Below, piece after piece: positions 23,367-64,000 of a stretch of 64,000 nucleotides of DNA. Numbering within the stretch: the stretch's first letter is position 1; each line of letters opens with the position of its first letter. The notes beneath the pieces are model-generated. The model made no database searches. It worked only from the letters and a program-made list of their open reading frames with translations, and had not been told where the DNA came from. Source of the DNA: Iphione sp. A-MEVVRFRX5 (lineage: Eukaryota). The position numbers and the translations under genes are program-made. The stretch covers positions 94,736,001 to 94,800,000 of the forward strand of contig OZ320313.1 of assembly GCA_976226885.1 (NCBI GenBank), in the 5' to 3' direction.

Positions 23367-23382
23367 CCTAGCTCTCCCGGTC
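23367..23382 (+). promoter_or_regulatory. Downstream arm of the conserved inverted repeat, element A (CCTAGCTCTCCCGGTC)
   Basis: 15/16 reverse-complement match to 26007-26022; 23364-23381 is identical to 36437-36454. Confidence 0.6.
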
Positions 23383-23441
23383 TAGTGTCTAGATGTAGTA
23401 ACTCATCAATCCATGTTTAGTTGTTGTCCTCCATGGAGCCA

Positions 23442-24158
23442 CTAATAATTCACATGTACCACTGGGCCGTTTGAACCAATATGGTAGTAGCCATAAAGGA
23501 CAATATATTCGTGAAGGAATTGCCTAATTGTATAGGCCCATTCCCTCACCGTGTTGTCCTTCGGCCTGAAACCGTCCTGTCCAAGGTGATCAAAGTTGTT
23601 GATAACCATACCCCCACTTGGATGAGTACCTGGTGGAGCAAGGGTACACGGGAAGACCCCAATCGAAGACGAGGTCGACTCACATCTCATGTTATAAAGT
23701 GCAACCGCCTGGTCCACTTTATACTGATCAAGATCATCAGTGGAGTCTGGAATTAGCCCCGAGACGTCGAGGCTGGCTGCTGGGCAAAGGACCACATGAG
23801 GCCCACCATCCGGAGCACTCTTGCATATGTGCATAATTTTCGCAATATAGAAATCCAGGCGTGCTGCATATTGAGCGGGTGACCCCGTTCGGACAGTCCA
23901 CGAGCCTTCTTCTTTGATCACCCAGTCATACATACCTCCAGCTAGCAAAATCAAATGGAAGCGTGAGGGATCAGCATACGTTAACCATTTTGCCATCATC
24001 CTCAGAGAACCACGCTTCAGGGTTACCTGGTGAATCAGAGTAGGCGGGAGCAGGTGAAGCACTGGCTCAAGCTCTTTGAATGCTGGAGCTGAGCGAGTAT
24101 CCGATACTACCAGTATTTTCGTTCGATGAGTCACGGTAGCTTGATCTGGATGCCTCAT
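23442..24158 (-). CDS. Stand-alone SGNH/GDSL-hydrolase-like ORF of element A, probably catalytically dead
   Basis: Intact frame (track 23442-24224, likely Met at 24158); KILVVSDTR (block I-like), LILLAGGMYD (block III-like), QDGFRP (block V DGxHP-like); homologous ORFs at the same position in B and C. Confidence 0.7.
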   Translation of the reverse strand: MRHPDQATVTHRTKILVVSDTRSAPAFKELEPVLHLLPPTLIHQVTLKRGSLRMMAKWLTYADPSRFHLILLAGGMYDWVIKEEGSWTVRTGSPAQYAARLDFYIAKIMHICKSAPDGGPHVVLCPAASLDVSGLIPDSTDDLDQYKVDQAVALYNMRCESTSSSIGVFPCTLAPPGTHPSGGMVINNFDHLGQDGFRPKDNTVREWAYTIRQFLHEYIVLYGYYHIGSNGPVVHVNY

Positions 24159-24251
24159 GACTTTGGCTAAACAAAAAGAAATAATGTTACAATGGCGCAT
24201 ACAAATATTACCCACACAGTTCAACTTTCTTGTGATAGAATTATGCTGAAA

Positions 24252-25942
24252 TTAACAGGCATTCACGTATTTTGCTCGTAGGTCCATAAGGACCTTGCCA
24301 ACTAGGTTCATCCCATTTTCCCCTTGTGTACTCAGCGGATCCGCAGCTTTGCTTAGCACTGTCCCACTACCAAACGTGCGATCTCGATCAGCATAGACAA
24401 GTTTACGCGATCCAGTGTCGATCAGGGATGTTTTGGCAGACAAGTTACAGCAGAAGTAGTCATTGTACATTCTTGCTAGGTTTACCTTCAAATTCGATTC
24501 CCATTCTTGCACAATCTTGGATTTAGATAGTGTCCGTTTGACTTCTGAATTCGAGCGGCAATTGTTAACAACTTGACCTAGTTTCAAGTCACGTCCTGAT
24601 TCGCTGTAGAGCGAGAGTAGGGCCATTTCCGGCGACGCATATTGTTTACCTTCAAGCTGCACCGAACCCATCAAATCTGGTGAAAATAGAGTGTTGTCGG
24701 CATCAAAAATGTAAGTACTGTCAGTAGAGGTCGAGTGGAGGTTGTTGTCCTTAAGAAATTCGGGTAGGCATGAGTTGTCATTCGGTGTGTATTTCTCTCC
24801 GTCAATGAGAAGATCTACCCCTCTCGCAGATGCCATGTGTCCCTGTTCCCGTGCCTTACATGCCAGCCGCTGGTTCCTTGTGTTTATGTCCACCGCAGAC
24901 GATGGGAGGTCCTCCTTGATGTAGATACCACTAACGCGATATTTATTGAGTTTGTGCTTACTGCGTAGAATGATGTTGCGTACTTCCAATGACGCCAATA
25001 GGATTCCAATCCTCAGCCCTTGTGGCGTTTCGTTGTAGACAGTGAAGTCAATCAGCTCTTCTGGCTTAATATCACAGATATTTGCAAGGAGATTAGTGAG
25101 GAAATGTCTAAGATAACGTTGTTTTTCTTTTGGAATCCCCTCTACTACCAGGCGTCTATTCCTGTCATTGATCTCGAGACGAGTTAGATCCAGTCTCACT
25201 CCTTGACAGCTGACAGTCAGCGCACTTAGTTTCCGTTCAATGTCAGCTATTACCTTGTCTAATGCTTCACTGCTCTTGTCCCTATTTTGGCTGAGTTCAT
25301 GTTTGTTTAATGACGATCTGAGTTCATTAACTTCTTTCCTGATGTCTGTGATCTCATCATTTAACTTTTTCTCCATGTTATGTTGCCAGCTTCGAATTTC
25401 CTGGATAAAGTCACTGCTTACCTCTGACAAGCTAGCGCTGTCACATGGGGTAGACGTCAATAGATGATTCAGACTCATCGGGCTTTTGAACGTGGAACTC
25501 GTGGAGCCATCCCCTTGTCCTGCAGCTTCATCGTTACTACCCATAGGAGAGGTAGGCACACTGTATGTAAGTTCTGAGTCAGGACTCCCAGCAGGAGAGA
25601 CTGTCTTGGTCATGTTATTGACAGATGACACCTCAATGTTGCTGTCATTGTTTACATTTCGATTTGTCTGAGACTGGTGTGTTACCGAATCAGATAATAC
25701 TAAAGAACTTGGTGAGCTCCTTGTATTTCCATTAATGCCTAGTTGAAGACTTACTGTGGTCTTGTTATATGTTGAGTTCGCAAGATCAGCCAGTGTCAAG
25801 ATAGGACAACCGTTGGGTTTAAATTGGCCTCCTTTTGGCTTTTGTCGTTGGAGCTGTTGATCGGGCGACTCGTTAGGCTTGTTTTGCTGTCCTTTGTACG
25901 ATCGGATTTATCCGACTGCGTCCCTGAGCGTGTACTAGGCAT
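24252..25942 (-). CDS. ORF1 of element A: low-complexity N-terminus, coiled coil, RRM/CTD, C-terminal NADAR-like domain
   Basis: Starts MPSTRS at 25942, 1-nt frameshift near 25800; RNRRLVVEGIP and IYIKEDLP (LINE ORF1 RRM/CTD); GKQYASPE, SLIDTG, DRDRTFGSG, GMNLVGKVLMDLR (NADAR-like). Confidence 0.85.
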
Positions 25943-26006
25943 TGTTCTTTGATATTAATAACTTCTTACGGCGGCACAGTTGTAGTAGCAGCTATTTTCT
26001 GACTTT

Positions 26007-26053
26007 GACCGGGAGAGCCAGGTAGGTCGCGCCTCTACTCGTCCGCCATCTTT
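26007..26053 (-). promoter_or_regulatory. 5' leader of element A: YY1-like AAGATGGCGG plus the upstream inverted-repeat arm
   Basis: First 21 nt match element C at 20 positions; AAGATGGCG resembles the YY1 consensus used in the L1 internal promoter. Confidence 0.55.
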
Positions 26054-27483: not shown

Positions 27484-30400
27484 TCATTTACATCTGCAGC
27501 TCTGGATGTTACTAGCATGCATTAGCCTTTTGAACTCCTTTACTGACAATGACCCTTTGTTTAGGAATTTTACCGAGTTCCAGCTTTTTACCCCTTGGTA
27601 CCAGAAGGATTTTACGAGTAGACTCTGCCTGGGTCTCGATTGACCTAGTTGACCTATGCTGCTTCTCCTCGTTGCCTTCCTTTCCCCTTGGACCCAGTCT
27701 TTGTGTCCATACAATAGCCTATGAATATGCACAGTGTTAGTTGCTCGTGGCCTCGCTCCTCTACTGTCTGGAGGCCTGCCTTTCTCCTCAGGTTTGTATT
27801 TGAGGTATGACATTTCCTAGAGCCTGTTAGGACCAGTCTCAACGCCCTATTCAACTCTACTTGGATTGTATCTACAGCCCACCCACTGGCATGTACATAT
27901 AGCCACAACCCATAGTCTACAATTGGTTGAACGAAGGATTTGAAGACTTTTACCCTGTCTGCAAAAGGCAACATTCTGCTTACTCTTGATAGTACATATA
28001 CCATATAGCACGTTTTTACTTCATTTTAGATCAAGCCATTAGCTTTCGTCCAGTTTACAACATCTCGTATACCTCTTTGCAGCTTCAGTCTGAGAGCCAT
28101 TACATTCGATGGTTCACAGTGTATAGTAATGTCATCAGCATACAAAACCGTTTTTGTCATGTAACTACATGAAACCGCGTGTCACATTATATACCGTATG
28201 CTGGTGTGTAGGGTTACACACCCATGCAACTCACCGTCTGCCTGGCTGTTACCTATTCTGCACTGTTGGTTCTGATATGTGTCAATGATCATGTAAGTCA
28301 TCATTAGGATGACCCCTGAAACAAAAAACCATCCAGTCTATTTTATTTTATGTTGATGTGCATGAGTACACACCCATACCCATCATCTGATAGGATGTTA
28401 CTAGTACTACACCATTGTTTTGTAAATAATGTATGTACATCACTTGTACAGTCCTGGTTCCTATCCAGCTGGTTTTGTCCCGAGATACTCTGTGATAGCC
28501 CATCAAATATATTCTTTCTCACTATATGTGCCTTGTACCCCTGTACCTGTGATATCTTGTCTTGTATGTAGAGAGCTTACTCTCATAACTCTCGCTCAAG
28601 CCCCTGAACTGGCTCACGCTGAATATATCTGTGATGTCCATACTTAAAATCAGAGTCTGTGATAATGCATGTTCTCATCCTGTGCCCACGAAATGCACTT
28701 TGATTGAATTGTATTATAACCAGAAGCTGTGCCAATCAATCATGAACAATCACAATGGCACTGTGGATCCTCTTAGTTTATTCCTGTAGCTTCGATGTTC
28801 CTTAGTCCTTTACTAGCCGATTTGTTCTAATGAGTCATATCTTCACTTCGTCTATTGAATTTACTTACTCTCCCAATTATGTAGCACTGTTCTTTGTAAA
28901 CTGCACGTACCTTCATTTACTTATGTAGCACTGTTATTTTGTAAATGCGCACATGTTTCCGAGGGTAGCTCCATACAGCATTGTTGGAGAAGGAAATAAA
29001 GAATCTTACAATCTTACAATCTTATTACCTGTGCTGAGGCAATGGGATTGATAAGCATGGAAAACATTAAAGGCCCCATTAGGCTTCCTTGGGGCACTCC
29101 CTGTCGTAGTTGGAGCTGCATAGAGCTTACCCCATTACAATTTACATACTGCTTTCTACCCTTGAGGTATTCTTTTATCCATCGCAAACACTTATTTCCT
29201 GCACCAGATTTCTCAAAACTACTTATGATGACAGAGTGATTCACAATATCGAACGCCTTGGATAGATCGAAAAAGACTGATGCTGTGTATCTGCCTTTGT
29301 CATTTGCTTCATAGATAGATAGTGTTGATACGGCAGTACCTGTGCCTCTCCCTGACCTGAAGCTATGTTGTGAATCTGTAAAAAAAAGTCGGTCCTCTCT
29401 AAGTGCCACACTATTTGACTATGCACTACCTTCCCAACGACTTTGCTTATTATTGGTAGTATGGCGATTGGGCGATAGTTTCCCTTATATGTTTTGGGGC
29501 CCTTTTTGTGGATAGGGGCTACCCTGGCTAGTTTCCATTTGTCTGGGAACTGTCCATACACAATCATATTTTTTACAATATCTGTCAGCAGCGCAAGCGA
29601 GATTAGTAGCGTATCTTTAACAACACGTGTTGGGATGTCTTTCAGGCCACTAGGCTTTCTGACTTCAAGAGCTTGGACTATTTCTCGTACTCTACTGGGT
29701 GATACCTCTTCAATATCCCAGGCGGCAGCACATTGTGTGACCTCTACATCCACCTTCCCCGATAGTCGTTCTGCCTGCTCAAAAGTGTAGATTTAAGACT
29801 TCTGCAGTTTGTTCCCCTTCAATTTCTCTTGTGCCATCAATTAGTTTTATATTAGCATTTCGCGGAGAGCCCCTGCCGAGAAATTTGTTTAGTGTCTGCC
29901 AGTATTCTTTCTGGGTCCTGCATCCGGCTAGTTGCCCCCTTATAAACTCCCTCTTTGTCTTTGCTACCAGTCTGGTTACAAGGGATTTATAGAATTTTGA
30001 TATTCTTAGGTCATCCTCGTTTCCATGTTCCCTAAACTTTTTCAAAAAATAGTCCCGATTTTTTTTGGCCTCCCTTATTTCCCCAGTTACCCATTCCCCA
30101 CCTTGTTTTTTCTTTTTTTTGACCTTTTGGCATAGTTGATCTGCAGCTCGTTGCATCCCTGATTCAAGGATATCCCACTTTTCTTCAGCTGTATCATTCT
30201 TCCTCCTGTTCAATTCCCCTAATGTGTCTTGTAATTTTTCTTCAAGAGCCCATCTATTGTACTTGCCCCATGCCCTGGCTGTATATTCCTCTTTATATTT
30301 GCCTTCCCTGATTTTTTTGTTAACTATATACACAGGGCAGTGATCACTCACATGCAGATTTAAAGCCCCTACCTCATGCAGATCCCTCATATTGGAGAAG

Positions 30401-30956
30401 ATAAGGCCTATGGTTGAGCTACTAGTATTATGTATGATCGTCGGCATGGTTACATGTTGACTTAGCCTGAAGCGATCCATGCATAACAAGTGTTTTCCTA
30501 CCACTACATTTTGCCCAGTCTGTGTTAAGATCACCTCCCAAGATTCCGTCTGGACCCTTGTCCCGTTCTACCCTTCTCAGAGTTTTCTCGAGATACGCAG
30601 TACAGTCTGACATCTTACTACCCAGTGGTACATACAGAGATCCTACATATAGTGGTCTGCGTTTGTGACCTGTGATTTTTACCCACTGACTTTCAACACT
30701 TGCAGTTATTGTGTTCAGGCTATTCACCTCCTCATCATGTGTATTGTTTGATACATACATTAACAGTCCTTCCCCTCTTTTCTTGTCAACTCCAGTCCTA
30801 TCCTGTCTTACTATATGATACCCGTCAATATGTAACATGCTATCAGGTATTGAGGGCTTGAGCCAAAGGTTTTTCCTTATCGAGCAACATGCGTACCTCT
30901 GTTAGTTTTGGGAGGAGACTTCTTATGTTCCAGAAAATCAACACTCGTCCCTTCAT
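27484..30956 (-). pseudogene. ORF2 (APE-RT) of element B, frameshifted and interrupted
   Basis: MKGRVLIFWNIRSLL at 30956, RGEGLLMY, GGDLN, SDH, NYRPIAILP, FDLSKAFD, GVPQGSLMGP, YADD near 28140, C-terminal YQGVKSWN. Confidence 0.88.
28171..29031 (+). mobile_element. 3'UTR-only copy of an A/C/D-family LINE inserted into the RT of element B
   Basis: 3' end TATGTAGCACTGTTATTTT..TTTCCGAGGGTAGCTCCATACA..TGTTGGAGAAGGAAATAAA closely matches 50132-50210; tail of AATCTTAC repeats; B's RT reading resumes on both sides. Confidence 0.8.
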
Positions 30957-31124
30957 GATTGACACCAAGATCACACTTTAATTTTTATGTTTATTGAAAC
31001 AATGACGAGTAGTTCTTAATTTCCCTAGTTCAATAAGCGTCTGGACATATCTTTACATCGAGCAAAAATACAGTATCCTATTTGCATACCAGATACAGTC
31101 CTCAAGGTGTTTATTACTAATCGA

Positions 31125-31807
31125 TTACGCTAGAAATGAACTTTCAAGAAATTCGATTATTTCACTTTCCCAGTTGGCAGTAATATGGTCCACCACATTT
31201 ACGTTATCAACCAGTAAGTCACTCCTAAAGATGTTGTGACCCAAGACATCTTCCTCTTGGATTGGCCATACTGTGTTCAGTGTGGCGAAACCATTTAGTG
31301 CGTTAATATCACAATACATCATGTTCAGCATATTTACTTGAGAGCACAGTTCATTCTGACAGGTAAGACGCATTGGTACCAATTGGACGGCATAGATGGG
31401 TAGGAAGATTACAAACATATCGTCAGGTCGATGTAACACACGATTTATTTCCATCAGTTGGTCGACATGTTCGTAGCCATCTCTGTCCTATCATGATATC
31501 TTAGTGTTGCATGATCACCTCCCGATTGCAGTAAGGAGTGAAGACCTGCGTGGATTAATGTCACATCGTACTCATTATCATCAAAGTCATCCACTCTTTC
31601 TACAATTTTCTCGAGCCCAGCATTTGTCATTATCACTGATTGCCATTCACATGTCGAATATAGCCGTGTGTAGACACCATGACCAAGCTGGAGGCCCTTC
31701 TCATCAGCAACATACCGTATGCTTCTAGACGAGTCACCTATTTGCCAGAGAAATATTGAAAATGAGCTAACAAGTGATTGGATTATCAGTTCACCATTAG
31801 TTGACAT
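31125..31807 (-). pseudogene. SGNH-like ORF of element B (one frameshift near 31460)
   Basis: QIGDSSRS (GDS motif), VTLIHAGLHS, VIFLPIY, LLVDNVN in place of DGxH; same position as in A. Confidence 0.6.
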
Positions 31808-31915
31808 TCGAGTGGTATTATATTACACGATTTGAAGTACAGTCGTTGCTCGTTTGCACATTTATAGCTTACCTGGCGGATTTTAGGCTCAGAAGTTTTG
31901 AGGAAATTTAGAAAT

Positions 31916-33388
31916 TTAATGATTGCTGTTACTTGCTTGATTTACCTCATCAAGGTAAATTTTCCTAATCTCAATAAGCGCTTTGCTATTCTGATTTTGA
32001 CCCGCATAGTTACCGTTCATTGTTGCAACGTCGTACAGTCAGCTACTGCTCCCCAGATATCGATCACCAGAGCAGTCTACCACTGTCTCTTCACCTGTTT
32101 TTGCTAGCGCCTCCCTCAGGTCTGAGTGACCATCGAATTTAGCTTTGTGAATATCATACAGCGTTTGTAATTCCTTTCTAGCCCATTCATTGGTCGGTTC
32201 AACCTTGCTACCCAGTTGCCTGGCCCTATAGGGACAATTCTTGTTCTCAATTTGACCTGCTAACTCGTCATTGTTACAACATTGTGCCTTTTCACTCTGA
32301 AATGCATGTTCTGCCGATTTGTACACTTTACCATTGTATTTCACCCCAGTTGGGTAGAGACTAGACAATGGGCAATGAATACCTCTTACTGCTATTACAT
32401 TGGCATTTTCATTTGTATTCGCTCCTTCTAGAGTAAGTTCGTAAGGTAGCTTGTCGAGATCACCTGAGCCATAACTAATCCCCTCTATTACGAGCGTTAG
32501 TCCACGCACTTCCGCCCTTAGTCCACGCCTTCTTGCCTCACTGGCTATTGAGTGTAAATCTTGGTAAAGAGCCCTGCCTTCTTCTGGGATATCTTCCGGA
32601 ATAAATATGTAGGAATATTCATCAAAGTTTTTCAAATTGAACCTTTTTAGGTACACACTGTTTCGTGAGCTTACAAAGTTAAATGTCACTCGCAATGTTC
32701 TTTCGTAGCCCTCTCTGAATTTCCCTAGGCGCTCCACACCATAAATGTCTTTCTCGTTTACACCACAGTCTAAGGCATAAATAACATCAGCGACTAGTGC
32801 CCATTCATCAACTTCTTCTCTGTCTAGAATACCTTGAAATAACAGGTTCCACCTCCTGTTGTAGACCTCTTCAAGGAGCGTGTCCTGTTTATCCTCCGCC
32901 TCGTTTTCTGTTTCCTCCACGTTCGTGTGCTTGCCTTCCAGTTTGGTCACCCTCTCTTCCAACCTTGCTAGCCGCTCATTTGTCTCACGGAGGAGCCGAA
33001 TAAGATGTATATTGTCTCTTACTAGTTTCAATCATACTCCCCTGCTCTGCCGAACTCTCCTCATTCTTTTTTCTGATAAGTTGTAGTTCCTTTAGTATTT
33101 GCTCCTCGTTCTGCAGTATGGACCCAAGCTCTCCTGAGCTACCGCTCCCCTCGTCCAGTGGGCCATTGTTCTCATTGGGCCCTCCTGCGGGCCGGGCACC
33201 TCGGGCTGCGACGAAAATAGAGTACCTTGCTCGTCGTTAGCGTTGGTCAGTTCAAACACATCGTTTTCGGATGATGGGCCGCCCAGAACCGCGTAGTTTT
33301 TGCTTCCACGAGTTGATCTGAGGTTAACTAGTTTTGGCGGGACACTTCCTGTACTTCCTTTTGTCTTTTTTGACTTTGTTCGCACCAT
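31916..33388 (-). pseudogene. ORF1 of element B with a canonical-looking NADAR domain
   Basis: MVRTKS start; LARLEERVTKLEG coiled coil; RRWNLLFQGI..ERLGK..IFIPEDIP; SAEHAFQSEKA, ARQLG, KAKF, LAKTG, DRYLG; reading through the TGA at 32039-32041 gives GQNQNSKALIEIR; disruptions near 33030-33200. Confidence 0.85.
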
Positions 33389-36300
33389 TTTTTGAATAAT
33401 GCTCAGGAGCGCCCGTTAGACACGTCCGTACACGTCATAGGTATATAGGTCATGTTTTTGATATAAAAAATCCGTATATAAGAACAGGATTCAGTATAAA
33501 CAGTATGCATGCATACATGACAATCGTAGTTAAATTGACGTCGCCACCGCGAGGACCCGACAGCAGTTGTCCACACCAGTGGCATGGTCACCCGTCTGGG
33601 GATTTGATAGAACAGGGATGAATACATCGCATAGTTTTTCCTATGCCACAAATGTGACCTGGAATCAGGCCGTTGTTGATACTGCTTATTTAGGAGTCAT
33701 GCAAGTTGTGGTAGATAAGAACAGTGAACAAAATGTACCAACTCCCTGGAAGCTCAATGTGGTACATAAAAGAACCACGATGTGTGGCGGTCAAGATATG
33801 ACAAGTTCATAGATAGGTGTAATCTTCATGGAAAGTATTGTAATATGTACAATGGAAAACTCTAGAAGTTCATACAAAAGCTGGTGATCTCCTGCTGGCC
33901 AAAAGAGGTATAATCTGTGAGAGACTTATTTTTTTTTATTTCAGGAAATATCTAACAAATGTGGGCCTCAGCCTAAGCTGGTGTTCAACCCAACATAAGC
34001 ATATTTTACCATTTTCAAATATTATAAATGATGTGCATTACCATGGGAAATACCATACTGAATGTTTATAAACATATATAAAACCAATTGAACTTCTTTA
34101 TAACATATTTCGGTACTAATTACAATTGATTGTACATTCCCATACAATATAATATATACATACTTGAGGATTGCTCATGTAATCCTTGTAACATTATATA
34201 TTTATATAGGTAAGATAAATAATAATCGTGTTAAATAGTAAAAAATTGGGTCAACATGGATTGTTAATAAATAGCTATCATTTGTATTTATACATAATAA
34301 TGTTGTATAATTACAATCTTCAGGCCCTATTGAATTGAATTCAACCATTGTCAGGTGGTCTCATATCAATCCATTCACGCTTTACAGTATTTTTGAAATG
34401 TAACAATGAATCATAGTCTCTAGAATATAATTTACAACTACATGTATTCCAAATTTTAATTGCTCAAGCATAGCTCGTTTTTAATAATGGACCTTTTACT
34501 ACTTGTGGTACCTCATATGTCTCATACATATTTGCTCTTAGATCATATCAATGTTTCTTCAAATGAAAAAATGTTTGTTAAAAAATTGGTAATATATTCA
34601 ATGAAGCTCTACATGAAAAAATAAGCTGGTGATACATTATTCTATCTTTTATAGACATTAGACTATTATCTCTCGAAATTTGTTCAGTATTTGTACGCAT
34701 ATCCAGTTCTATCGATGTGAACATGATAACTCTCTGCTGTATTCATGTGAACTATTATCATCTCGTTTATAATGTTCATCTTGTTCATTCAATTTTTCAT
34801 TTGTTGCACTATATCCCCATCTGGTCAGATGCGTTGCTCTGTATATGCCAAACTGTGTGAAGGTGTTGTCAAGATGGAAACAGAAGATAGTATAATGAGT
34901 TGTCTCGAGATGTAACTGTCAGAATAGAGCTATTGTAATAAACTATGGATTCATAATCTGATGTTTTGATATGTGGCAACATCTTCCCTCTGTGATGCGA
35001 CCATGAACACTAAGGTTTTGAGCATAAAACCTTCCATTGAAAATGGGTTGTTATAGTGACATGCTCTTATGATGACACTCTCTGACATCATAGTGGTGGG
35101 TTGCTAAGAGATGATCAACAATCATCATAAATAGCATTAGTGGGCCAATTTGAATATTATTTTATCCCAAATTACACAGTTTCGAATATATCTCTTCAGG
35201 CATCACTTCTGTAATTTTTTCACGGTGTCAATAGAATCTATATTGACTTTTAATGCTGTTGGTCTGTGATTACTCCACATAGGCCTAAAGCAGACACACA
35301 TCTCATGATGGATCTAATTTGGTTTAATTGCAATACAATCAAACCAATTGAAATGTTGCATGTCATTACCCCAATTCATATGGCAACATATCATTTTATA
35401 TGCTGAGATAATAAAAAAAATTGACAATCTGATGTTTGACTGTCTGTAGATGAATGCACAGAGTATGTGTCTGAAACTTCCTGAGATAAGTGATATTATC
35501 AATAGAGAAAAACCAAGCTTAATAATCATCACAGAGACGTGGTTGAGTGAATCCGTCCCTACTTCTCTACTGTCTATCTAGTTGGGGTAACAGGGGGCGG
35601 AATAATGATATATTTCAAAGAAAATATGAGAGTGGAAGAAATAACAATAGAAACGGACCAAGAGGCATTAAGGGATATTGATATGTTACATTTGAAGATA
35701 ATATTGGAGAATAATCGATCAATTCATCTGATAGCATTGTATCTCCCGCCTGCCGTAGATCACAAACAGTTAATGAGGAAACTAGAACTAGCAATAGAGA
35801 CAATAAGAAAACATGACACTGTACTGATCTTAGGTGACTTTAACATTTACATGGCAGATGAGAACTATTGTGTGCAGGACCTGCTAAACTTTCAAGGAAG
35901 GTATGGTCTCATAGAAACGGTGAAGGATATAACAAGAGAATCATCAAGTTCGATAATTTACTTTGTGTTAACAACTCGACCAGAAAAAGTTGATACCTCG
36001 ATCATTAAAAACAACGTTTAGTGATCACTACACAGTAAAAGTAAATGTAAATCTAAGACTTGATCTCAAGGGGGGCAGACCAAAAACCATGGTTAGGATG
36101 AAGGCGTTCCAATACACAAGTATTGAATCGAAATGGGAGCACCGGTATTTTAAAGAAGTTGTGAAAAAAGTGATAGACAAAATATGCCCATTTGTTATAG
36201 CGAGGACTCAGATGCAGATTCACCCTTGGTTTAATATTGAATGTAAGGAGGGTATTAAAGACAGAAACAGATTGTATGCAAAAGCCCATACTACAAAAAC

Positions 36301-36518
36301 TGAGGCAGATATGAAAAATGCGACTAATTTTGCAAAACACTTGAAATTTAGAATAAGAGAAAAGAAAAAGACCTAGATAATGAAAAGAATTGATATTTAT
36401 AAAAAGCAAAAAAGATGGCAGACGAGTAGAGGTATGGACCCTAGCTCTCCCGGTTTAAGGTCACAACAATAATCCCTGGGAGCCCAATTCCCCCAGATTT
36501 AACCTGATATGACTCAAC

Positions 36519-38815: not shown

Positions 38816-41256
38816 ATCCACTTGATCACCTTGAAGAGGGCCTCCTACAGGATGATCGCTTGCTGGCTGTCCTACACTGATGCGTCATGCTTCCACCTTG
38901 TACTTATCGCAGGTGGCATCCCAGTCAGGAATGTGACCTCACAGCAAGCTAGCAGTGACCTCATACTATGAGCTCATGCTGAACTCAATTTGTAACCTCA
39001 CAGTTACCTCACAGTGAGCTCACACTGTGAAGTCACAGTGTGAGCTCACTGTGAGCTCAGACTGACCTCACACTATGAGCTCAGGAGCTCACACTGAACT
39101 AAATTTGTAACCTCACAGATACCTCACTATGACCTCACAACGTGAGCTTGCTCTCCTATCAAATTGAGCTGCTTGTGTGCATTATAAAATCTCAATCTTT
39201 GTGGATGATTGGCAGTGGATGGCAGATAAACAGTACACTGTTGATTTGGGTTGACTTGGATTGCACTGGATACTGATGATTTTATGCCGATGGTATGACT
39301 TGTCACTGCGATGCTTGCCAACCTCTTTCACTGAAGTGCAGTAACAACCCACTGCTTCACTGTATAAACCCATTGATTTGCAGTATAAAGCCAACAAAAA
39401 TGAAAAATTGTAACAGAAAATGTAGGATTTGTAAGCATTTTTGTACAAGGTTTCAAAGGTAACAAAGAACAAAGACTTGTTTTCAGGTGATGGCACCTTG
39501 GCTGAATTCTTTTATTAATCATAATTACACCTACAAGTGGAAACACCTATATGGGTGATCAAAATGAAATTAGATAAGTCACATATAATGAATGTCTGAA
39601 CTCAGCATAGAAATTAAGTCAAATATATTATGGATATCTGCAATGAAAATAAAAAGGGTTCCTGAAAGAGAAAATTCATATATTAAATGACTAAATAAAC
39701 TACAGTCAACTTTAAAAAATCATTTTTGAAAATCTTATCAAAATAATACTCAAATTTTTACAGGAAAACTCTCATAAACTCTATTCTCATTAACTTTGAC
39801 AACTTGAATGTGGGTGCACAGAAAAATTTCCAGCACCACTCCTATTCATTGTATCAACATGCAAAAACCACCAAAAGAAAGCTTACAACCTCAGCTTTGC
39901 AGCTGTATAGACATTTAGTCCCTACGAGAATTATTTCTTATAGAAATAGTTAAATTGGCGAATCACGATTCGTCAAACTAGAATGTATAGAAATAACCCC
40001 AATTATCACTCATAGGGAGGGTAAACATAACAAATCTAAACTGCTCTAAAACGTTCTTAATTAATCCCATCATAAATTAATGTTGCTATCTGACCAAGTA
40101 TATAAGAAACAGTCATATATCTTACCAAATTTGAAGTGTGCATAGCAAACATAGGTGAAAACAGATAAAGGTTTACAGGAGGCTGGCGTTGGTAGCTGTT
40201 CCTATCTGGTTTACCCACGCTATTTTCGCGCCAAATCGGCGGGAGTAGCCAACGGTCTTGCTGTGAACGGGGCTGGCTGCAGTAATTACGTTTTCGACTG
40301 TGGAGGAACGGAAACTATGGCTATAGACACATGCTATAGCTCATTGGAAAGCTCTTGTTGAGAGCTTTCTAACCAGCTATAACATGTCTCTATAGCTGTA
40401 GTTGCCGCTCCTTCACAGAAAATATAAAAAATTGAAGACAATTTGTATGATCTATCTATATCCTCCATGTACAGAATATTATTAATCAAAATGACAACAA
40501 CACATGTTATGATGTTCCTGTGAGCGAAATGTGAGCTTTTGCTAGTTACCTAAAACATATGATGTATTTGTGAGGTAACTGTGATATAATACATGTGAGC
40601 TCACACCTGTGAGGTATCTGTGAGCTAACTGTGATATAATACATGTGAGCTCACACCTGTGAGGTATCTGTGAGCTAACTGTGATATCATACATGTGAGC
40701 TCACATCTGTGAGCTTCTTGTGATCTAACTGTGACATCTACGTGAGCTCATGTCTTGACTGGGATGTATGATTGGGTTGTCAAGGCTGATGGCATGTGGA
40801 CAGTGCACACCAGATCACCAGCTGAATATGCAGGATGCCTTGAAATTTTACCTCGCCAAGATCAATAACTTCTGCAAGCGTGATCCCGACAGGGGTCCAC
40901 ACGTGGTATTTTGTCCAGCAGTAAGTATAGACATCTCAGGCCTGAACCCTGACACGCCGGACAAGCTGGAGCAGTACAAGATTGACTCTGCAGTAGCAAT
41001 ACACAATCTGAGATGTGAGCACACGTCATCTGCAGTTGGTGTATTTCCATGCTCACTCGCCTCACCAGTGTCCCATCCAAGTGGGGGAGAAGTCATCAAT
41101 AATTTTGATCATCTGTGTCCTGATGACTTCAGGTCCAAAGATGCGACTGTTGGGGAGTGGACCTACCCAAATAGGCTTTTTCTTCATGAATACATAGCCA
41201 AGTATGGCTACTACCATATAGAAAACAACGGACCAGTGGTCCAGGTAAATTTTTAG
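38816..41256 (+). pseudogene. SGNH-like ORF of element C, interrupted by a DNA transposon
   Basis: WLSYTDASCFHLVLIAGG|MYDWVVK and GPHVVFCPAVSIDISG..FDHLCPDDFRSKD match A (WLTYADPSRFHLILLAGGMYDWVIK; GPHVVLCPAASLDVSG..FDHLGQDGFRPKD). Confidence 0.8.
38920..40763. mobile_element. Non-autonomous CACTA/EnSpm-like (CMC) DNA transposon
   Basis: TIRs CCCAGTCAGGAATGTGACCTCAC / CCCAGTCAAGACATGAGCTCAC, 2-bp TSD AT, arrays of TGTGAGCTCAC subterminal repeats at both ends; excision restores AGGMYDW. Confidence 0.8.
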
Positions 41257-41355: not shown

Positions 41356-41371
41356 AGCCGGGAGAGCTAGG
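41356..41371 (-). promoter_or_regulatory. Downstream arm of the inverted repeat, element C
   Basis: CCGGGAGAGCTAGG (41358-41371) is the exact reverse complement of 36440-36453. Confidence 0.6.
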
Positions 41372-42496: not shown

Positions 42497-42700
42497 TCTG
42501 GACTGCCTCGGTCGCGTTAGGCCGCCCCCAGTGCTACTAACACTCCTCCACAGCCCAGAGGGACAGCCTGGACCGCCTCGGTCGCATTAGGCCGCCCCCA
42601 GCGCTAATAGCACCCTCCCACAGCCCAGAGGAACACCCTGGACCACCTCGGTCGCGTTAGGCCGCCCCCAGCGCTAATAGCAACCCCCACAGCCCAGAGG
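42497..42700. repeat. 70-bp GC-rich tandem repeat, 3 copies
   Basis: CTCGGTCGC at 42507, 42577, 42647. Confidence 0.9.
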
Positions 42701-42714
42701 CCTCCCTAGAAGTA

Positions 42715-45700
42715 TTTTGGTTCAAGTCTCATCCTTCTATGTACAATAGTTTCCAAATTATGACAGTTTTTCTCTATACCCACCTTTTGACTAGGTCACA
42801 TGTTGCCACCCCTATCACCTGCATCATTTGTTCAGTGGCATTTTGGTTCAAGTCCTATCCTTCTATGTGCAATAGTTTCCTAGTTATGACAGTTTTTTTC
42901 TTTACCCACCTTTAGACTAGGTGACCTGTTGCCGCCTCTGTCACCTGCATCATTTGGTCGGTGGCATTTTGGTTCAAGTCCTGTCCTTCTATGTGGAATA
43001 GTTTCCCAGTTATGGCAGTTTTTCTCTTTACCCACCTTTTGACTCGGTGCCCAGTTCCCGCCTCTATCACTTGCGTCATTTGGTCGGTGGCATTTTGGTT
43101 CAGGTCCTGTCCTTCTACATGGAATAGTTTCCCAGTTATGGCAGTTTTTCTCTTTACCCTCCTTTTGAGCAGGTGACATGTTGCCACCTCTATGACCTGT
43201 GTCATTTGGTCGGTGGCATTTTGGTTCAAGTCCTGTCCTTTTATGTGTAATAGTTTCCCAGTTATGACAGTTCTTCCCTTCACCCACCTTTTGACTGGGT
43301 GACGTGATGCCGCCTGTATCACCTATGTCATTAGGTAAGTGGCATTGTGGTTCAAGTCCTGTCCTTCTATGTGCAATAGTTTCCCAATTATGACAGTTTT
43401 TCTCTTTACCCACCTTCTGACTAGGTGACCTGTTGCCGCCTCTATCACTTGTGTCATTTGGTGGGTGGCATTTTGGTTCAAGTCCTGTCTTTCTATGTGC
43501 AATAGTTTCCCAGTTATGACAGATTTTCTCTTTACCCACCTTTTGACTAGGTGAACTGATGCTGCCTCTATCACCTGCATCATTTAGTTGGTGGCATTTT
43601 GGTTCAAGTCCTGTCCTTCTATGTGCAATAGTTTCCCAGTTATGAAGGATTTTCTCTTGACCCACTATTTGACTAGGTCACCTGTTGCCGCCTTTGTCAC
43701 CTGCATCATTTGGTTGGTGGCATTTTGGTTCAAGTCCTGTCCTTGTATGTGCAATAGTTTCCCAGTTATGACAGTTTTTCTCTTTATCCACTATTTGACT
43801 ATGTCACCTGTTGCCGCCTTTGTCACCTGCATCACTTGGTCGGGGGCATTTTGGTTCAAGTCCTGTCCTTGTATGTGCAATAGTTTCCCAGTTATGACAG
43901 ATTTTCTCTTTACCCACCTGTTGACTAGGTGACCTGTTGCTGCCTCTATCACCCGCATCACTTGGTCGATGGCATTTTGGTTCAAGTCCTGTCCTTGTAT
44001 GTGCAATAGTTTCCCAGTTATGACAGATTTTCTCTTTACCCACCTGTTGACTAGGTGACCTGATGCTGCCTCTATCACCTGCATCATTTAGTTGGTGGCA
44101 TTTTGGTTCAAGTCCTGTCCTTCTATGTGCAATAGTTTCCCAGTTATGAAGGATTTTCTCTTGACCCACTATTTGACTAGGTCACCTGTTGCCGCCTTTG
44201 TCACCTGCATCATTTGGTTGGTGGCATTTTGGTTCAAGTCCTGTCCTTTTATGTGTAATAGTTTCCCAGTTGTGACAGTTTTTCCCTTCACCCACCTTTT
44301 GACTGGGTGACGTGATGCCACCTGTATCACCTATGTCATTAGGTCAGTGGCATTGTGGTTCAAGTCCTGTCCTTGTATGTGCAATAGTTTCCCAGTTATG
44401 ACAGTTTTTCTCTTTACCCACCTTCTGACTAGGTGACCTGTTGCCGCCTCTATCACTTGCGTCATTTGGTTTGCAATAGTTTCCCAGTTATGACAGTTTT
44501 TCTCTTTACCCACCTTCTGACTAGGTGACCTGTTGCCGCCTCTATCACTTGCGTCATTTGGTCGATGGCATTTTGGTTCAAGTCCTGCCCTTGTATGTGC
44601 AATAGTTTCCCAGTTATGACAGATTTTCTCTTTATCCACTATTTGACTAGGTGACCTGTTGCCGCCTCTATCAATTGCATCATTTGGTTGGTGGCATTTT
44701 GGTTCAAGTCCTGTCCTTGTATGTGCAATAGTTTCCCAGTTATGACAGTTTTTCTCCTTATCCACTATTTGACTATATCACCTGTTGCCGCCTTTGTCAC
44801 CTGCATCACTTGGTCGGGGGCATTTTGGTTCAAGTCCTGTCTTTGTATGTGCAATAGTTTCCCAGTTATGAAGGATTTTCTCTTTACCCACCTGTTGACT
44901 AGGTGACCTGTTGCTGCCTCTATCACCTGCATCATTTGGTCGGTGGCATTTTGGTTCAAGTCCTGTCTTTCTATGTGCAATAGTTTCCCAGTTATGACAG
45001 ATTTTCTCTTTACCCACTTTCTGACTAGGTGAACTGTTGCTGCCTCTATCACCTGCATCTATAAGTTGGCGGCATTTTGGTTCAAGTCCTGTCCTTCTAT
45101 GTGCAATAGTTTCCCAGTTATGAAGGATTTTCTCTTGACCCACTATTTGACTAGGTCACCTGTTGCTGCCTTTGTCACCTGCGTCATTTGGTCGGTGGCA
45201 TTTTGGTTCAAGTCCTGTCCTTTTATGTGTAATAGTTTCCCAGTTATGACAGTTTTTCCCTTCACCCGCCTTTTGACTGGGTGATGTGATGCCACCTGTG
45301 TCACCTATGTCATTAGGTCAGTGGCATTGTGGTTCAAGTCCTGTCCTTCTATGTGCAATAGTTTCCCAGTTATGACAGTTTTTCTCTTTACCCACCTATT
45401 GACTAGGTGACCTGTTGCCGCCTCCATCACTTGTGTCATTTGGTCGATGGCATTTTGGTTCAAGTCCTGTCCTTGTATGTGCAATAGTTTCCCAGTTATG
45501 ACAGATTTTCTCTTTATCCACTATTTGACTAGGTGACCTGTTGCCGCCTCCATCAATTGCATCATTTGGTTGGTGGCATTTTGGTTCAAGTCCTGTCCTT
45601 GTATGTGCAATAGTTTCCCAGTTATGACAGTTTTTCTCTTTATCCACTATTTGACTATGTCACCTGTTGCCGCCTTTGTCACCTGCATCACTTGGTCGGG

Positions 45701-45904
45701 GGCATTTTGGTTCAAGTCGTGTCCTTGTATGTGCAATAGTTTGCCAGTCATGACAGATTTTCTCTTTATCCACCTGTTGACTAGGTGACCTGTTGCTGCC
45801 TCTATCACCTGCATCATTTGGTCGGTGGCATTTTGGTTCAAGTCCTGTCCTTCTATGTGCAATAGTTTCCCAGTTATGAAGGATTTTCTCTTTATCCACT
45901 ATTG
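42715..45904. repeat. 126-bp satellite array, about 25 monomers, with an 8-monomer higher-order repeat
   Basis: TTTTGGTTCA at 42715, 42841, 42967, 43093, 43219 (period 126); diagnostic variant ACCTATGTCATTAGG at 43321, 44329, 45303. Confidence 0.95.
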
Positions 45905-46616
45905 AAGGTACAGGTGCAGCCAGGGCTGCAAATGGAGGTCATATTCCTGTTCTCTTCATGTTCTCCCTTTTATTCTTAATGATGTTCTCACTCACATTAA
46001 TACTCTCACACACATACTCTGTTATGTTTTTGCTCATATTCATGTTCTCATTAATACCTGTGCTCTCTTCATGTATTCACTGACATTCATGTTCACACTC
46101 ATGTAAGAGTAAGAACACAACTAAGAATAAGAGTGAGAACATGAATGTCAGTGAGCACATGAGTGAGAGTATCAATGAGACCATAAGTCCCATTCTTCTA
46201 TGTACAGTAGTTTCCAAGTTATTGTAGTTTTTCTCGTTACCCACCTTTTTACTAGGTCACCTAATGTCACCTCTATCACCTATGTCACCGTGCTCTCTTC
46301 ATGTTCTCACTGACAGTTATGGTTTCATTCATACTCTCACTCATGTGCTCACTGACATTCATGTTCTCATTCTTATTCTTAGTTATGTTCTTACTCTTAC
46401 ATGAGTGAGAACATGAATGTCAGTGAATACATGAAGAGAGCACAGGTATTAATGAGAACATGAATATGAGCAAGAACATAATAGAGTATGTGTGTGAGAG
46501 TATTAATGTGAGTGAGAACATACTTAAGAATAAAAGTGAGAACATGAGTGTTAGTAAGAACATGAAGAGAACAGGAATATGACCTTCATTTGCAGCCCTG
46601 GCTGCACCTGTACCTT
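45905..46616. mobile_element. Foldback/MITE-like palindromic element
   Basis: Termini AAGGTACAGGTGCAGCCAGGGCTGCAAATG(G/A)AGGTCATATTCCTGTTCTCTTCATG are inverted; arms about 280-300 bp; no TSD seen. Confidence 0.8.
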
Positions 46617-60199: not shown

Positions 60200-60444
60200 T
60201 GTGGCGTGTGTGCGGGGCTGTGCGTGCAGGGTATGAGTGCGGTGGATGTGCGGGTATATGTGTCGTGCGGGGTGTGGCAGGGAATGTGGTTGTGTGCGTG
60301 TGTGTCCCCGCACCTTATGTTATATAAGGAGGTGCTGTGCGGGGAGTCAGTTCAGTTGCTTGCCCATGTTGGTTGAATAAACATCTTTGACTGTTATCCG
60401 GCCTTCCCGCATCATGAGTTTGAGAAGTGGCAGAAGCCGTAACA
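60200..60444 (+). repeat. 5' LTR of the Gypsy element
   Basis: TGTGGCG...CGTAACA, TATATAA near 60321, AATAAA near 60376, followed immediately by the PBS. Confidence 0.8.
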
Positions 60445-60445
60445 T

Positions 60446-60463
60446 TGGTGGCAGCAGTGGGAT
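60446..60463 (+). promoter_or_regulatory. Primer-binding site, tRNA-Leu type
   Basis: TGGTGGCAGCAGTGGGAT is complementary to the 3' end of a eukaryotic tRNA-Leu (..AUCCCACCGCUGCCACCA, recalled) with one mismatch. Confidence 0.7.
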
Positions 60464-60554
60464 CCCTCCAAGTGGTAGCCGGGAGTACGTTGGCACCACG
60501 GAGGAAGAAGAACTGGCGACTTCTCGCGCGGGAGTGAGGGAGGCGGCTAGTAAC

Positions 60555-61793
60555 ATGGATAACCTAGAAGGGGAACGGTCTCCATTGGCTTCGGTTCCCC
60601 GAAGCAGGGCAGCCTCGCACCCCGCACCCAGGAGCGGGGTAGCCCCGCACACACCGGCACCCCAGGGCGGGGCCCCGCACCCTGCACTGGCAAGCGGGGC
60701 CCCGAGCCGGGCGGATCTGGAGCGGAAGGTCCTACGCCGGCCTAGTATTTTCCGACTGGAAGAACAAGGGGAGCCGACCTCAGATAATGAAGACCAAGAG
60801 GAAGAATCCGACCAGGCGAGCAACTCAGGCGATAGCAAAGGGGAGGAGGAGGAGGACCCCCCCCTTCGCGACAACGGCATCGGACGGGCCGATAACAGGG
60901 GGCCGGTCGCCAATGATCTGTTCCAGGGGCTGGCCCAGGCCTTGATGGCTAGTGTCCAGGAAGCAGCGGCGCAACAAGGAGCCTCAAAACGGTATCACAC
61001 CAAGCCAGAACAGTTTGATGGGACCATGCCTTTGATGGATTACATACAGCATTTTGAATGGGTGGCCATGGCAAACCGTTGGAGTGAACGGGAGAAAGCT
61101 CTCCAAATGCGTATCAATCTTCGGAAGTCTGCTAGAGGGATCCTGCAAACAGAGGCATGGGACGAGAATGATCCTCAGGCATACCAGAAGCTGTTGAAGT
61201 TGTTGAAGCGAAGATTCATGTCCAAGGACCAAGCGGGGCTGTTCGAGCAGCAATTGAAGAGTCAGAGGCAGGGCAAAGATGAGGACCTGAACCAGTTTGC
61301 GGAGGAGATGGAGAGATTGGTCCGTCAGGCTTATCCGGAAGTGGAGGGCCCCTGGCTCGATCGTATGTGCCAGGAGTACTTTACCGGTGCCCTCCGGGAC
61401 AAAAGGGTTCGCAAACAAGTCACCTTGAGTAAAGCCACCACGTTCCAAGGGGCTTTATCCCAGGCTTTGCTGGCAGATTCTTTTTACCGCGCCGAAGAGG
61501 AGCGAGGGAGCACTCATCGCGTCTGCGCCGCCACGGAGGTGGAGGAGGAAGTGGACACGGCTGCGGCGGTTACAGCCTCCCGGACCAGTGATGGGGCCAC
61601 ATTGGAGCGGATTGAACAGCTCCTGCAGCAACTACTGAAGCCGGAGCCAGCTGGAGAAGCAAAGAAGTCACGGCCGCGGGGAAGAAAAGGGAAGTGTCAT
61701 TTCTGTGATGAAGTCGGGCACTTTAAAAGGGATTGCGAGAAGTTCAAGACGTACCAGGCAGAAAACGGCGTCCCGCCCGCCCCAGAGAAGTAG
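60555..61793 (+). CDS. Gypsy Gag
   Basis: Open frame; PEQFDG..YIQHFEWVAMANRW capsid-like segment; CHFCDEVGHFKRDC zinc knuckle; ATG at 60555 lies downstream of the PBS. Confidence 0.9.
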   Translation: MDNLEGERSPLASVPRSRAASHPAPRSGVAPHTPAPQGGAPHPALASGAPSRADLERKVLRRPSIFRLEEQGEPTSDNEDQEEESDQASNSGDSKGEEEEDPPLRDNGIGRADNRGPVANDLFQGLAQALMASVQEAAAQQGASKRYHTKPEQFDGTMPLMDYIQHFEWVAMANRWSEREKALQMRINLRKSARGILQTEAWDENDPQAYQKLLKLLKRRFMSKDQAGLFEQQLKSQRQGKDEDLNQFAEEMERLVRQAYPEVEGPWLDRMCQEYFTGALRDKRVRKQVTLSKATTFQGALSQALLADSFYRAEEERGSTHRVCAATEVEEEVDTAAAVTASRTSDGATLERIEQLLQQLLKPEPAGEAKKSRPRGRKGKCHFCDEVGHFKRDCEKFKTYQAENGVPPAPEK

Positions 61794-64000
61794 GGTGGGC
61801 GGGATTGACTGGAGACCGGGAAGAGTGGCCGGAACACCTCGCAGCGTTAGCCTACGACATGGGGCCCCTCTACAAACTACAGGCAAACCGGGACAGTGTC
61901 ACCAAAGGTTGGAGTCTGCCGGCTCGCGTTCAGGGGATTTCCATGAATTGGCTTGTAGATACTGGAGCGTCAGTGACAGTCCTGGCGGAGAGGGTGTACC
62001 GGCAGCTGCAGGAAATTCCCTTGCTTCCTCGCCAGGGGCGTGTGTTGTGCGCAGATGGGAAACCCTTAGAAGTTCAAGGAGAAGTGAAATTAAGCATGGA
62101 ATTCGGCCAAGTCCAACTGCCAGTGAATGCACGGGTGGCCCTCATTGAAGCGGAAGGGCTGTCGGGGCTGGACACCCTGACGAAGTGGGAGGCTACGGTG
62201 TGCACAGGGTCAGGGGAGATTACGGTGCGATTACCTGGTCAGGAAAACCGAGCCGTCTTGAAGAAGTCAGTAGTCGTCGAGGGGCATTGTCGACAAGTCA
62301 TTCCCATTCAACTGAGCGGCCAGGGGCCAGTGGGACAATTCGTGGTCGAGGGGCTTCCAGGCTTCGAAGAAAGGTCGGGGCTACGAGTGGTGTCGACGCT
62401 GTTTGAAGACCAGGAGGAAGAGCTCGGCATACTTGCATGCAACCCCGGGGAGGCAGCCGTGCGCCTGTACCAAGGGACCTGCGTGGGACTGCTGTCCACC
62501 CTGACCAGACCTGAAAAAGGAAAAGAGTTGGGGAGAGTAGAAGCGGAGTTACTTGCAGAAGAACAGGAATCAGCCATCCAATTTCTTCTAGACACTCTGC
62601 CAGATGAAGTCCAAGAAGCGGAACGTGAGCTGCTACGCCAACTATTGTGGAAATATCGGGAGGTAATGCAAACGCCATCAGGACCTCCTGGACGTACCGC
62701 TATGGTTAGCCATCAGATAGAGACGCAAGGCCATGTTCCCATCCGTCAACGGACGTGCCGCCTACCCAGGGATAAGCGACCGCTGGTATAAGCAGAGCTT
62801 AAGAAAATGATTGACAAGGGTGTCCTGGAACCCTCCGTTAGTCCGTGGGCATCCCCAGTAGTGTTAGTATGAAAGAAAGACGGGGGAGTTCGGTTCTGCG
62901 TGGATTATCGTCAGCTAAACAACTGCACCAAGAAGGACGCGTACCCGTTACCCCGAATCGACGATACGCTGGACGCGCTCCAAGGAGCCAGGTATTTCTC
63001 TACCCTGGACCTAGCGAGTGGGTATTGGCAAGTCGAAGTGCACCCGTCGGATCGGGAGAAAACAGCTGTGTGTACAACCGAAGGACTCTACCAATTCAAG
63101 GTCATGCTATTTGGCCTTTGCAATGCGCCTTCAACTTTTGAGAGGTTGATGGAGGCTATTTTGCGAGGCCTGATTGGAGATCGATGCCTGGTCTACCTGG
63201 ACGATGTGATCATCTTGGGATGATCTATAGAAGACAGTTGCGCCAACTTAGCGGAGGTTCTGGAGTGGTTCCAGGAGGCGGGCCTGCGTATCAAACCATC
63301 AAAGTGCCAGCTATGCCAACGACGTGTGCGGTACCTGGGGCATGAAGTGTCCGAAGAGGGGGTGTCGCCGGACCCGGAGAAGACACGGGCTATTTCAGCC
63401 TGGCCAGAGCCGAAATGTGTTGATGAAGTGAGAAGTTTCCTTGCCCTGGCTTCGTACTACAGGAGTTTCGTCAAGAACTTCGCGGATGACGCGTCGCCAC
63501 TGATTCAGTTAACAGAGAAAGGAACTGAGTTCAACTGGGGCCCCCAGTGCGAGGCCGCCTTCCGTTCACTGAAACAGCGCCTCTGTGATGCGCCCATCCT
63601 TGCCTATCCCCGGCCGGAAGGAGCTCTTCGCCTGGACACCGATGCCTCCCTGGTGGGGATAGGAGCGGTCCTTAGCCAAGAGCAGGAGGGGCAAGAGAAG
63701 GTAATCGCCTATGCTAGCCGACAGTTGACCAAGCCAGAGAGAAACTACTGCGTGACAAGGTGTGAACTATTAGCAATAGTGTGGGCACTGAGGAAATTCA
63801 AACACTACCTTGGGGGACAAGAGGTGCTGATTAGGACCGACCATGATTCCTTGAGATAGCTGTGCCGATTTCATGAGCCGGAAGGGCAACTTGCACGCTG
63901 GTTGGAGGAAATATTTTGTTACAACTTCTCCATTGTGCATCGGCCTGGGAAGAAACACAGAAACGCGGATGCCCTGTCTCGAGTAACCTGCAGACAGTGT
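61733..64000 (+). pseudogene. Gypsy Pol (PR-RT-RNase H), -1 frame to gag, with premature stops
   Basis: LVDTGAS protease; [20 protein letters not shown]; DASLVGIGAVL, TDHDSL; stops such as TGA near 62870 and 63220. Confidence 0.92.

Follow-up and report, generated by a model that had tools for sequence, protein, structure and literature searches.

The 64,000-nucleotide stretch of DNA analyzed here (the window) belongs to an animal genome of 1.18 Gb, and all the data reported below come from this one genome. Its minus strand carries a LINE with three open reading frames, element A, which extends from about position 26053 down to a short tandem-repeat tail at 18234-18209 that is likely to be its 3' end. 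The first reading frame (ORF1, 25942-24252) encodes a protein with a C-terminal NADAR-like domain, detected with Pfam at an E-value of 4.7e-8, slightly below the curated cut-off; by our own reading it also comprises coiled-coil and RRM-like parts. The AUG frame of ORF1 closes after 48 codons, and its main frame occupies 25907-24252. The middle ORF (24158-23442) codes for an SGNH/GDSL-like esterase, which yielded no match in Pfam and none in the PDB, and whose ESM Atlas features score 0.94-0.95 to GDSL clusters. Further downstream, a U-rich spacer of 1.46 kb (23366-21907), the predicted landing and scanning zone of the model developed below, leads to ORF2 (21906-19160), in which Pfam recognized the APE endonuclease (Exo_endo_phos) and the reverse transcriptase (RVT_1), and with which a PDB search recovered one distant reverse transcriptase only. 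The presence of APE and RT domains in ORF2, the lack of terminal repeats and the simple-repeat tail mark element A as an APE-type non-LTR retrotransposon, whose clade we take to be of the CR1/L2 group; the homologues found in the search bearing on the RT clade were 23-31% identical. With ORF1 interrupted close to its beginning and ORF2 between the two domains (at about 21346-21256), element A is a dead copy.

A more decayed relative, element C, lies on the plus strand, with its leader, uORF and 5' arm at 36412-36455 (the arm itself at 36440-36455) and its 3' arm at 41356-41371, after an SGNH-like remnant at 40759-41256; no ORF2 was found downstream of this 3' arm. The window also contains an array of about 26 tandem 126-bp copies (42590-46030), which adjoins a long near-perfect inverted repeat (45905-46616), and GC-rich ORFs resembling LTR-retrotransposon gag and protease on the plus strand (60414-64000).

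Conservation of the inverted repeat

The first-pass annotation of this DNA had described a 16-bp inverted repeat bracketing ORF1 and the SGNH-like ORF of element A, and had made its readings depend on conservation of the downstream arm in other copies. The repeat is real and conserved. Its leader (5') arm lies at 26022-26007 and its 3' arm at 23382-23367, both as annotated, and the two can indeed form a 16-bp helix with a single G-U pair in sense RNA, enclosing 2,624 nt; the 3' arm stands just past the stop codon of the SGNH-like ORF (23442), with 59 nt between stop and arm. Within the arms lies an invariant core of 10 nt (26018-26009 and 23380-23371). At up to 3 mismatches, the window holds four matches to the arm as against 0.20 expected, a count reached in none of 100 shuffles, and a genome-wide search with the 14-mer gave 87 exact matches, many of them in convergent pairs 2.4-2.8 kb apart, and the reversed control gave 10.

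To these two elements we added 140 fetched copies, giving 142 loci. Forty of the copies came from DNA and pattern matches and were partly selected for the motif; the other 100 were chosen purely by SGNH protein similarity, from 150 matches, a set that omits matches already included and about 10 at the end of the list. The antisense 10-nt core, at up to 2 mismatches and within 330 nt of the SGNH end, was present in 139/142 loci (control words: 1, 7 and 9 of 142), so that at least 97 of the 100 protein-picked copies carry it, and it is retained down to about 50% SGNH identity. In 94 loci, making up 41 subfamilies at 80% identity, both arms could be called. Of 35 elements tested, 33 have no ungapped helix stronger than the one between the arms, and in 34 of 36 no other window pairs better with the leader. 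A further claim, that GTC follows 5-7 nt after the core, holds for all four arms of A and C; among the subfamily representatives both arms show it in just 11/41, so it is no general signal.

Scans of metagenomes with the SGNH alignment and with the leader pattern gave no match in other hosts. Rfam returned weak miRNA-hairpin matches only, on repeats inserted in element C, and none on the arms or the spacer.

The leader and its four-codon uORF

Conservation begins at about 26053 in element A, where a TISU/YY1-like start (26053-26035, minus strand) opens a uORF that reads Met-Ala-Asp-Glu-stop (26049-26035). Compared with the TISU consensus (PMC3177215), 49 of 95 leaders have 0-1 mismatches and all 95 have at most 3, and the leader AUG lies about 4 nt from the end of the element. 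TISU has been reported as a driver both of YY1-dependent transcription and of initiation from very short leaders (PMC3177215). In copies anchored by the 5' core alone, the fifth uORF codon is TAG in 105/109, and the other four comprise three copies nearly identical to one another and one in which the AUG is lost (33 loci have no 5' core); the third codon varies freely. The uORF stop precedes the core by 13-16 nt and the outermost predicted base pair by 0-15 nt (median 7). The AUG of ORF1 sits within the loop.

Covariation of the arms and the predicted duplex

Covariation across genomic copies, which had been proposed as one check on these arms, is seen over the 41 subfamilies: in the lineage of element A the core is fixed and the flanks of both arms change together. 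At positions -4 to -1, Watson-Crick pairs occupy 103/164 cells; swapping the partners gives 48.6 +/- 6.6, and none of 5000 permutations reached the observed count. At positions +11 to +15 such pairs occupy 123/205 cells as against 95; beyond these positions no Watson-Crick excess was found. On a tree of 40 representatives, with element C left out, there were at least 4, 4, 6 and 4 switches between Watson-Crick pairs at -3, -2, -1 and +12, respectively; a stricter parsimony measure counting shared branches on this tree stayed within the control maxima.

The mismatches favor pairing in the sense strand, with 18 G-U and 5 A-C oppositions in sense RNA at -4 to -1, as against 24 and 14 in permuted pairs, and with observed counts of 28 and 13 by cluster majority (p 0.028); decay mismatches within the core are symmetric (15 versus 17). 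Duplex energies in this lineage do not differ between sense and antisense (-42.5 versus -41.5 kcal/mol, p 0.14). The invariance of the core, in a stem whose sequence differs between families and in its flanks, suggests an added constraint, from a promoter or a binding protein.

Each arm tends toward the loop of a local hairpin, a placement that may be the source of the GTC noted above. When cognate flanks are compared with swapped ones in these local hairpins, the 5' arm gives p 0.004, in the sense strand only, and the 3' arm 5e-5, on both strands; the hairpins of A or C taken alone are not significant (z 0.08 to 1.9 and -0.38), and family-level support for kissing hairpins is weak. Sequence past the arm also seemed, by eye, to pair with the beginning of the leader, but this did not survive the swap control (z 0.15). 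Individual copies carry further complements, namely a second leader-arm complement deeper in the spacer of L210 and three decayed core copies in the spacer of L092.

The long-range duplex is predicted to be better than two local hairpins by a mean of 23 kcal/mol, with the core paired in 35/36. This margin, like the tendency of the arms to occupy hairpin loops, would also suit a duplex that is an off-switch only, hiding the leader, stopping ORF1 translation and handing the RNA to particle assembly, perhaps after annealing by the ORF1 protein. Such a role offers no reason for AUG avoidance downstream of the arm, nor for a leader partner 20-30 nt before ORF2 in distant families (both described below), and as the whole explanation we hold it to be unlikely; an off-switch and a shunt can coexist.

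Predicted splicing and exchange of modules

ORF1 contains a predicted phase-1 splice donor (24652-24644, minus strand; the intron would start at 24649) and a second, phase-0 donor-like site at 24485, for which no partner is evident. Among 50 intact ORF1s the donor-like sequences occur in 44 (phase-1) and 50 (phase-0), with fixed synonymous codons. A pyrimidine tract with an AG acceptor (24190-24158, minus strand) ends its AG at 24167, 8 nt ahead of the SGNH AUG, and is found in 36/36 of those representatives, out of 41, that have a recognizable AUG. The acceptor and the phase-matching donor together predict a spliced ORF1-SGNH fusion with the joint at about ORF1 residue 420. Stop-codon readthrough from ORF1 into the SGNH-like ORF was ruled out by the relative frames, which number 10/14/15 over 39 copies. 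Intron-less or loop-deleted copies were not found among the fetched loci. As a separate observation, ORF1 codons 15-16, 352, 377 and 426-427 (numbering of element A) are fixed synonymous codons and point to more signals at the RNA or DNA level.

That conserved splice signals exist for the middle ORF, and that a GT is always present in the uORF end, lends some plausibility to a stem that joins splice sites, such that ORF1 and the SGNH-like ORF would be skipped in a spliced ORF2 mRNA. We regard this as quite improbable, given that a conserved acceptor before ORF2 and a conserved strong donor in the leader are both absent, and that among 5 leaders without ORF1 not one continued into sequence from past the arm.

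Element A is a chimera, its 5' module being 83-92% like those of L061-L063 and its ORF2, of a different subfamily, 90-93% like that of L096 (protein level), with the switch at about 22610-22515, or 770-865 nt past the arm. Such swaps between 5' module and ORF2 are frequent (L096, L092, L077, L116, L118 and others), with the switches in the spacer; in one case the switch falls close past the arm, and both arms remain on the 5' module. Two other arrangements were encountered. Tandem leaders at C19:4.76 Mb were considered as rolling-circle copies and rejected, being a segmental duplication with host flank, and at G000:C15:97.30-97.31 Mb (L219, L062, L220) a member of the family is inserted in the ORF1 of another.

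The chimeras, and a core common to all subfamilies, might be taken to mean that the arms pair between two RNA molecules as a kissing dimer, promoting template switching and module swaps. The sequences fit intramolecular and intermolecular pairing alike; the dimer leaves the uORF and the AUG profile unexplained, however, and with the local hairpins of A and C individually insignificant we think it very unlikely. Two readings in the first-pass annotation fare no better. One made the downstream arm an antisense promoter reusing the 5' motif, and the other a recombination or processing signal that turns ORF1 and the SGNH-like ORF into a swappable cassette. The core does belong to the 5' end motif, and swaps do occur, with element A itself an example; but the antisense strand has a TISU/YY1-like motif upstream of the 3' arm in 2/139 loci as against 1 in a control window, the G-U bias points to sense RNA, and the switch points fall in the spacer and not at the arms. 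Either version is scarcely probable. A DNA transposon or invertible cassette with terminal inverted repeats was rejected because conservation runs beyond both arms and the swaps occur in the spacer; no inverted ORF1-SGNH block was seen in 40 feature maps.

The spacer between the 3' arm and ORF2

AUG triplets were counted in 42 representatives with non-alignable spacers, chosen among 121 copies whose ORF2 AUG had been located. Their observed/expected ratio is 0.95 from the SGNH stop to the arm, falls to 0.38 in the first 50 nt past the arm, and is 0.74 in mid-spacer and 0.53 in the final 100 nt before ORF2, with control values of 1.09 in the 3' UTR, 1.13 in the gap between ORF1 and the SGNH-like ORF and 0.94 in host flank. 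Downstream of the arm AUGs also tend not to have a purine at -3 (0.36 versus 0.46 in the control, p 3e-5), an avoidance not seen upstream, whereas the ORF2 AUG has one in 42/42. Because AUG avoidance starts at the 3' arm, the profile argues that ribosomes bound for ORF2 enter past the arm and not from the SGNH stop.

The predicted landing site after the stem is 67% A+U, AUG-poor and without marked folding (z about 0). Between stem and ORF2, over an arm-to-AUG distance of 0.45-1.8 kb, the lineage of A has 4-33 AUGs, mostly weak and none of them strong in 27/42; the spacer of element A itself has 24, of which 1 is in strong context. With this many AUGs past the stem, and no second stem found to close the spacer, this lineage is the harder case for a shunt. 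Premature polyadenylation in the spacer was ruled out, AATAAA occurring at 0.03/kb as against 0.94/kb for its reverse complement.

Taken alone, the AUG profile is also compatible with a transcript starting at the arm. ORF2 might be translated from a subgenomic RNA that begins at or just past the 3' arm, through an internal sense promoter or cleavage, with the spacer as its 5' UTR and the pairing having some other job; the onset of AUG avoidance would fit equally well, and a protein might bind the invariant core. Left unexplained would be the covariation of the flank with the leader, the fixed uORF with its interchangeable stop codons, and the leader duplexes that stand right before ORF2 in families lacking the core, and we consider this origin of ORF2 improbable, to about the same degree as the off-switch.

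The spacers of A's lineage are further marked by seed matches to the miR-2 family, here called K-box-like sites. The counts for the sense versus the antisense orientation are 31 versus 3 of 42 in the spacer and 13 versus 0 in the 3' UTR, and their density in the spacers of L061-L200 is 1.67 versus 0.09 per kb, likewise sense-biased. Those in the window lie at 22484 and 22335 in the spacer of element A and at 18648 and 18575 (minus strand), and at 41840 and 42017 (plus strand). The genome encodes mir-2 genes with a matching seed, including a mir-2 cluster at G000:C17:10.37 Mb, and the K-box has been linked to miR-2 (PMC1043860). Spacers of the distant families have such sites without sense bias (3 versus 4). 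The orientation bias suggests a transposon that keeps host microRNA sites. Other sense-biased 7-mers in the spacers of L061-L200 are GACTGTT, ATCCAAG and variants.

Distant families with the same layout

A search with the leader led to three-ORF LINEs that have the uORF in common with A's lineage but not the core pair, their SGNH identity being about 25%. With 20 further copies fetched there were 23 distant elements, 2 of them without an ORF2 match; 21 could be scored, L260 and L272 being the two that could not. The uORF stop is present in 23/23, as TAG in 16, TAA in 6 and TGA in 1. When 430-520 windows per element were ranked as partners for the leader, the best lay 66-115 nt ahead of the ORF2 AUG in 16/21 (-42 to -63 kcal/mol), a count that represents two families and 9 ORF2 clusters and not 16 independent cases. 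Three of the remaining elements pair about 200 nt ahead of the ORF2 AUG, in L205 the partner ranks second, and L208 has none. For 9 representatives the leader-partner duplex has z of -3.1 to -9.9.

The predicted duplex of about 30-40 bp starts 0-9 nt past the uORF stop and ends 19-29 nt ahead of the ORF2 AUG in 15/20, and it is stronger in the sense than in the antisense strand in 15 of the 17 elements whose partner falls inside the last 100 nt. Here the spacer lies inside the loop and is not AUG-poor (0.92; purine at -3 0.47 versus 0.47), as a shunt predicts. Of the AUGs past the stem, 0/9 carry a purine at -3, in a pool that includes stem sequence for four mis-parsed elements, and one weak AUG between stem and ORF2 is kept in 7/15. 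The middle ORF of these families seems to open at an acceptor and to have no AUG of its own. Within the window, a decayed LINE on the minus strand (element B, 27484-33415) matches NADAR more strongly (Pfam 1.6e-16) and combines an esterase-like remnant with a short spacer; neither a leader nor a duplex of this kind was found in it.

A model for the expression of ORF2

The arms with their covariation, the uORF, the AUG profile and the layout shared in two distant families are features of the sequences themselves, and the model built on them is as follows. We think it probable that the conserved, co-varying arms close a long-range RNA stem and that this acts as a short-ORF/stem ribosome shunt delivering ribosomes to ORF2. 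Ribosomes would start at the cap-proximal AUG and, having translated four codons, terminate about 7 nt (0-15) short of the stem. Where the stem has formed they would cross its base, land just past the 3' arm and from there scan as far as the AUG of ORF2; where it is open they would reinitiate at ORF1. Open RNA would then yield ORF1 and, through the predicted splice, the ORF1-SGNH fusion, and paired RNA would yield ORF2. Of the three readings in the first-pass annotation, that of long-range pairing in the service of ORF2 translation is the one favored by the covariation, by the AUG avoidance from the 3' arm onward and by the predicted pairing of the leader before ORF2 in distant families.

With the landing site 0.45-1.8 kb from ORF2 in A's lineage, only a small fraction of ribosomes would get there, leaking past weak AUGs as they scan. 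From L1 biology, low efficiency may suffice for ORF2. A wider proposal, for and against which we find the balance even, is that a broad group of three-ORF animal LINEs would express the reverse transcriptase through a shunt that loops out kilobases of coding RNA, one RNA switching between ORF1 and ORF2, with kissing-hairpin nucleation, a fixed core read by a protein and selected miR-2 sites in the spacer as additions in A's lineage.

Comparison with known systems

A search of open-access literature, with subscription papers and repeat-database entries outside its scope, returned no title or abstract opening describing such a LINE pairing. NADAR-bearing ORF1 proteins are reported from Tx1 LINEs of Crassostrea gigas (PMC12477816), which thus also have this domain in a LINE ORF1; the description consulted there mentions neither a third ORF nor RNA pairing. 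The leader resembles TISU by sequence and, unlike TISU as reported, opens a four-codon uORF and not the main ORF.

The answers described for translating LINE ORF2 from a multi-ORF RNA need a nearby upstream stop. In SART1 stop and start overlap, and mammalian L1 has a 63-nt spacer, both being cases of termination-reinitiation (PMC5972666, PMC5902531). The elements described here resemble these in that ORF2 would be made from an RNA that also encodes ORF1; but SART1 and L1, in the accounts cited, require their stop to lie near the start of ORF2, whereas in our elements 0.5-2 kb separate ORF2 from the preceding stop, which is not where AUG avoidance begins. If the model is true, LINEs would have a new route to ORF2, by shunting over two entire genes. 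Shunting has been reported for the avihepadnavirus polymerase, there without the short-ORF/stem layout (PMC3542737, citing Cao and Tavis 2011); in both cases, non-linear scanning on a genome-length RNA would give access to a reverse transcriptase ORF.

The closest layout is that of the short-ORF/stem shunt reported for plant pararetroviruses (CaMV, RTBV), for RTSV and for foamy virus gag (PMC5902531, PMC3542737). As described there, a 5'-proximal short ORF in an AUG-GC context has its stop a few nt ahead of a long stem's base, followed by an A/U-rich landing zone and a downstream start codon, on the genome-length RNA of a reverse-transcribing element; in RTBV and RTSV the short ORF ends 7-8 nt before the stem, likewise in GAG UAG. 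A start codon shortly past the landing site is found in our distant elements (19-29 nt in 15/20), whereas in A's lineage it is 0.45-1.8 kb away, behind 4-33 AUGs. The systems differ in host and element, an animal and a LINE in our case, and in what is bypassed, which in the LINEs would be 2.6-4 kb with two genes that need translation and in the viruses is part of a 600-nt leader. A's lineage differs further in its long AUG-containing stretch past the stem and in its invariant 10-nt core, the pararetroviral stem sequences being reported as not conserved (PMC5902531). Should the model hold, the short-ORF/stem shunt would stretch from the leaders of plant viruses to kilobase coding loops in animals.
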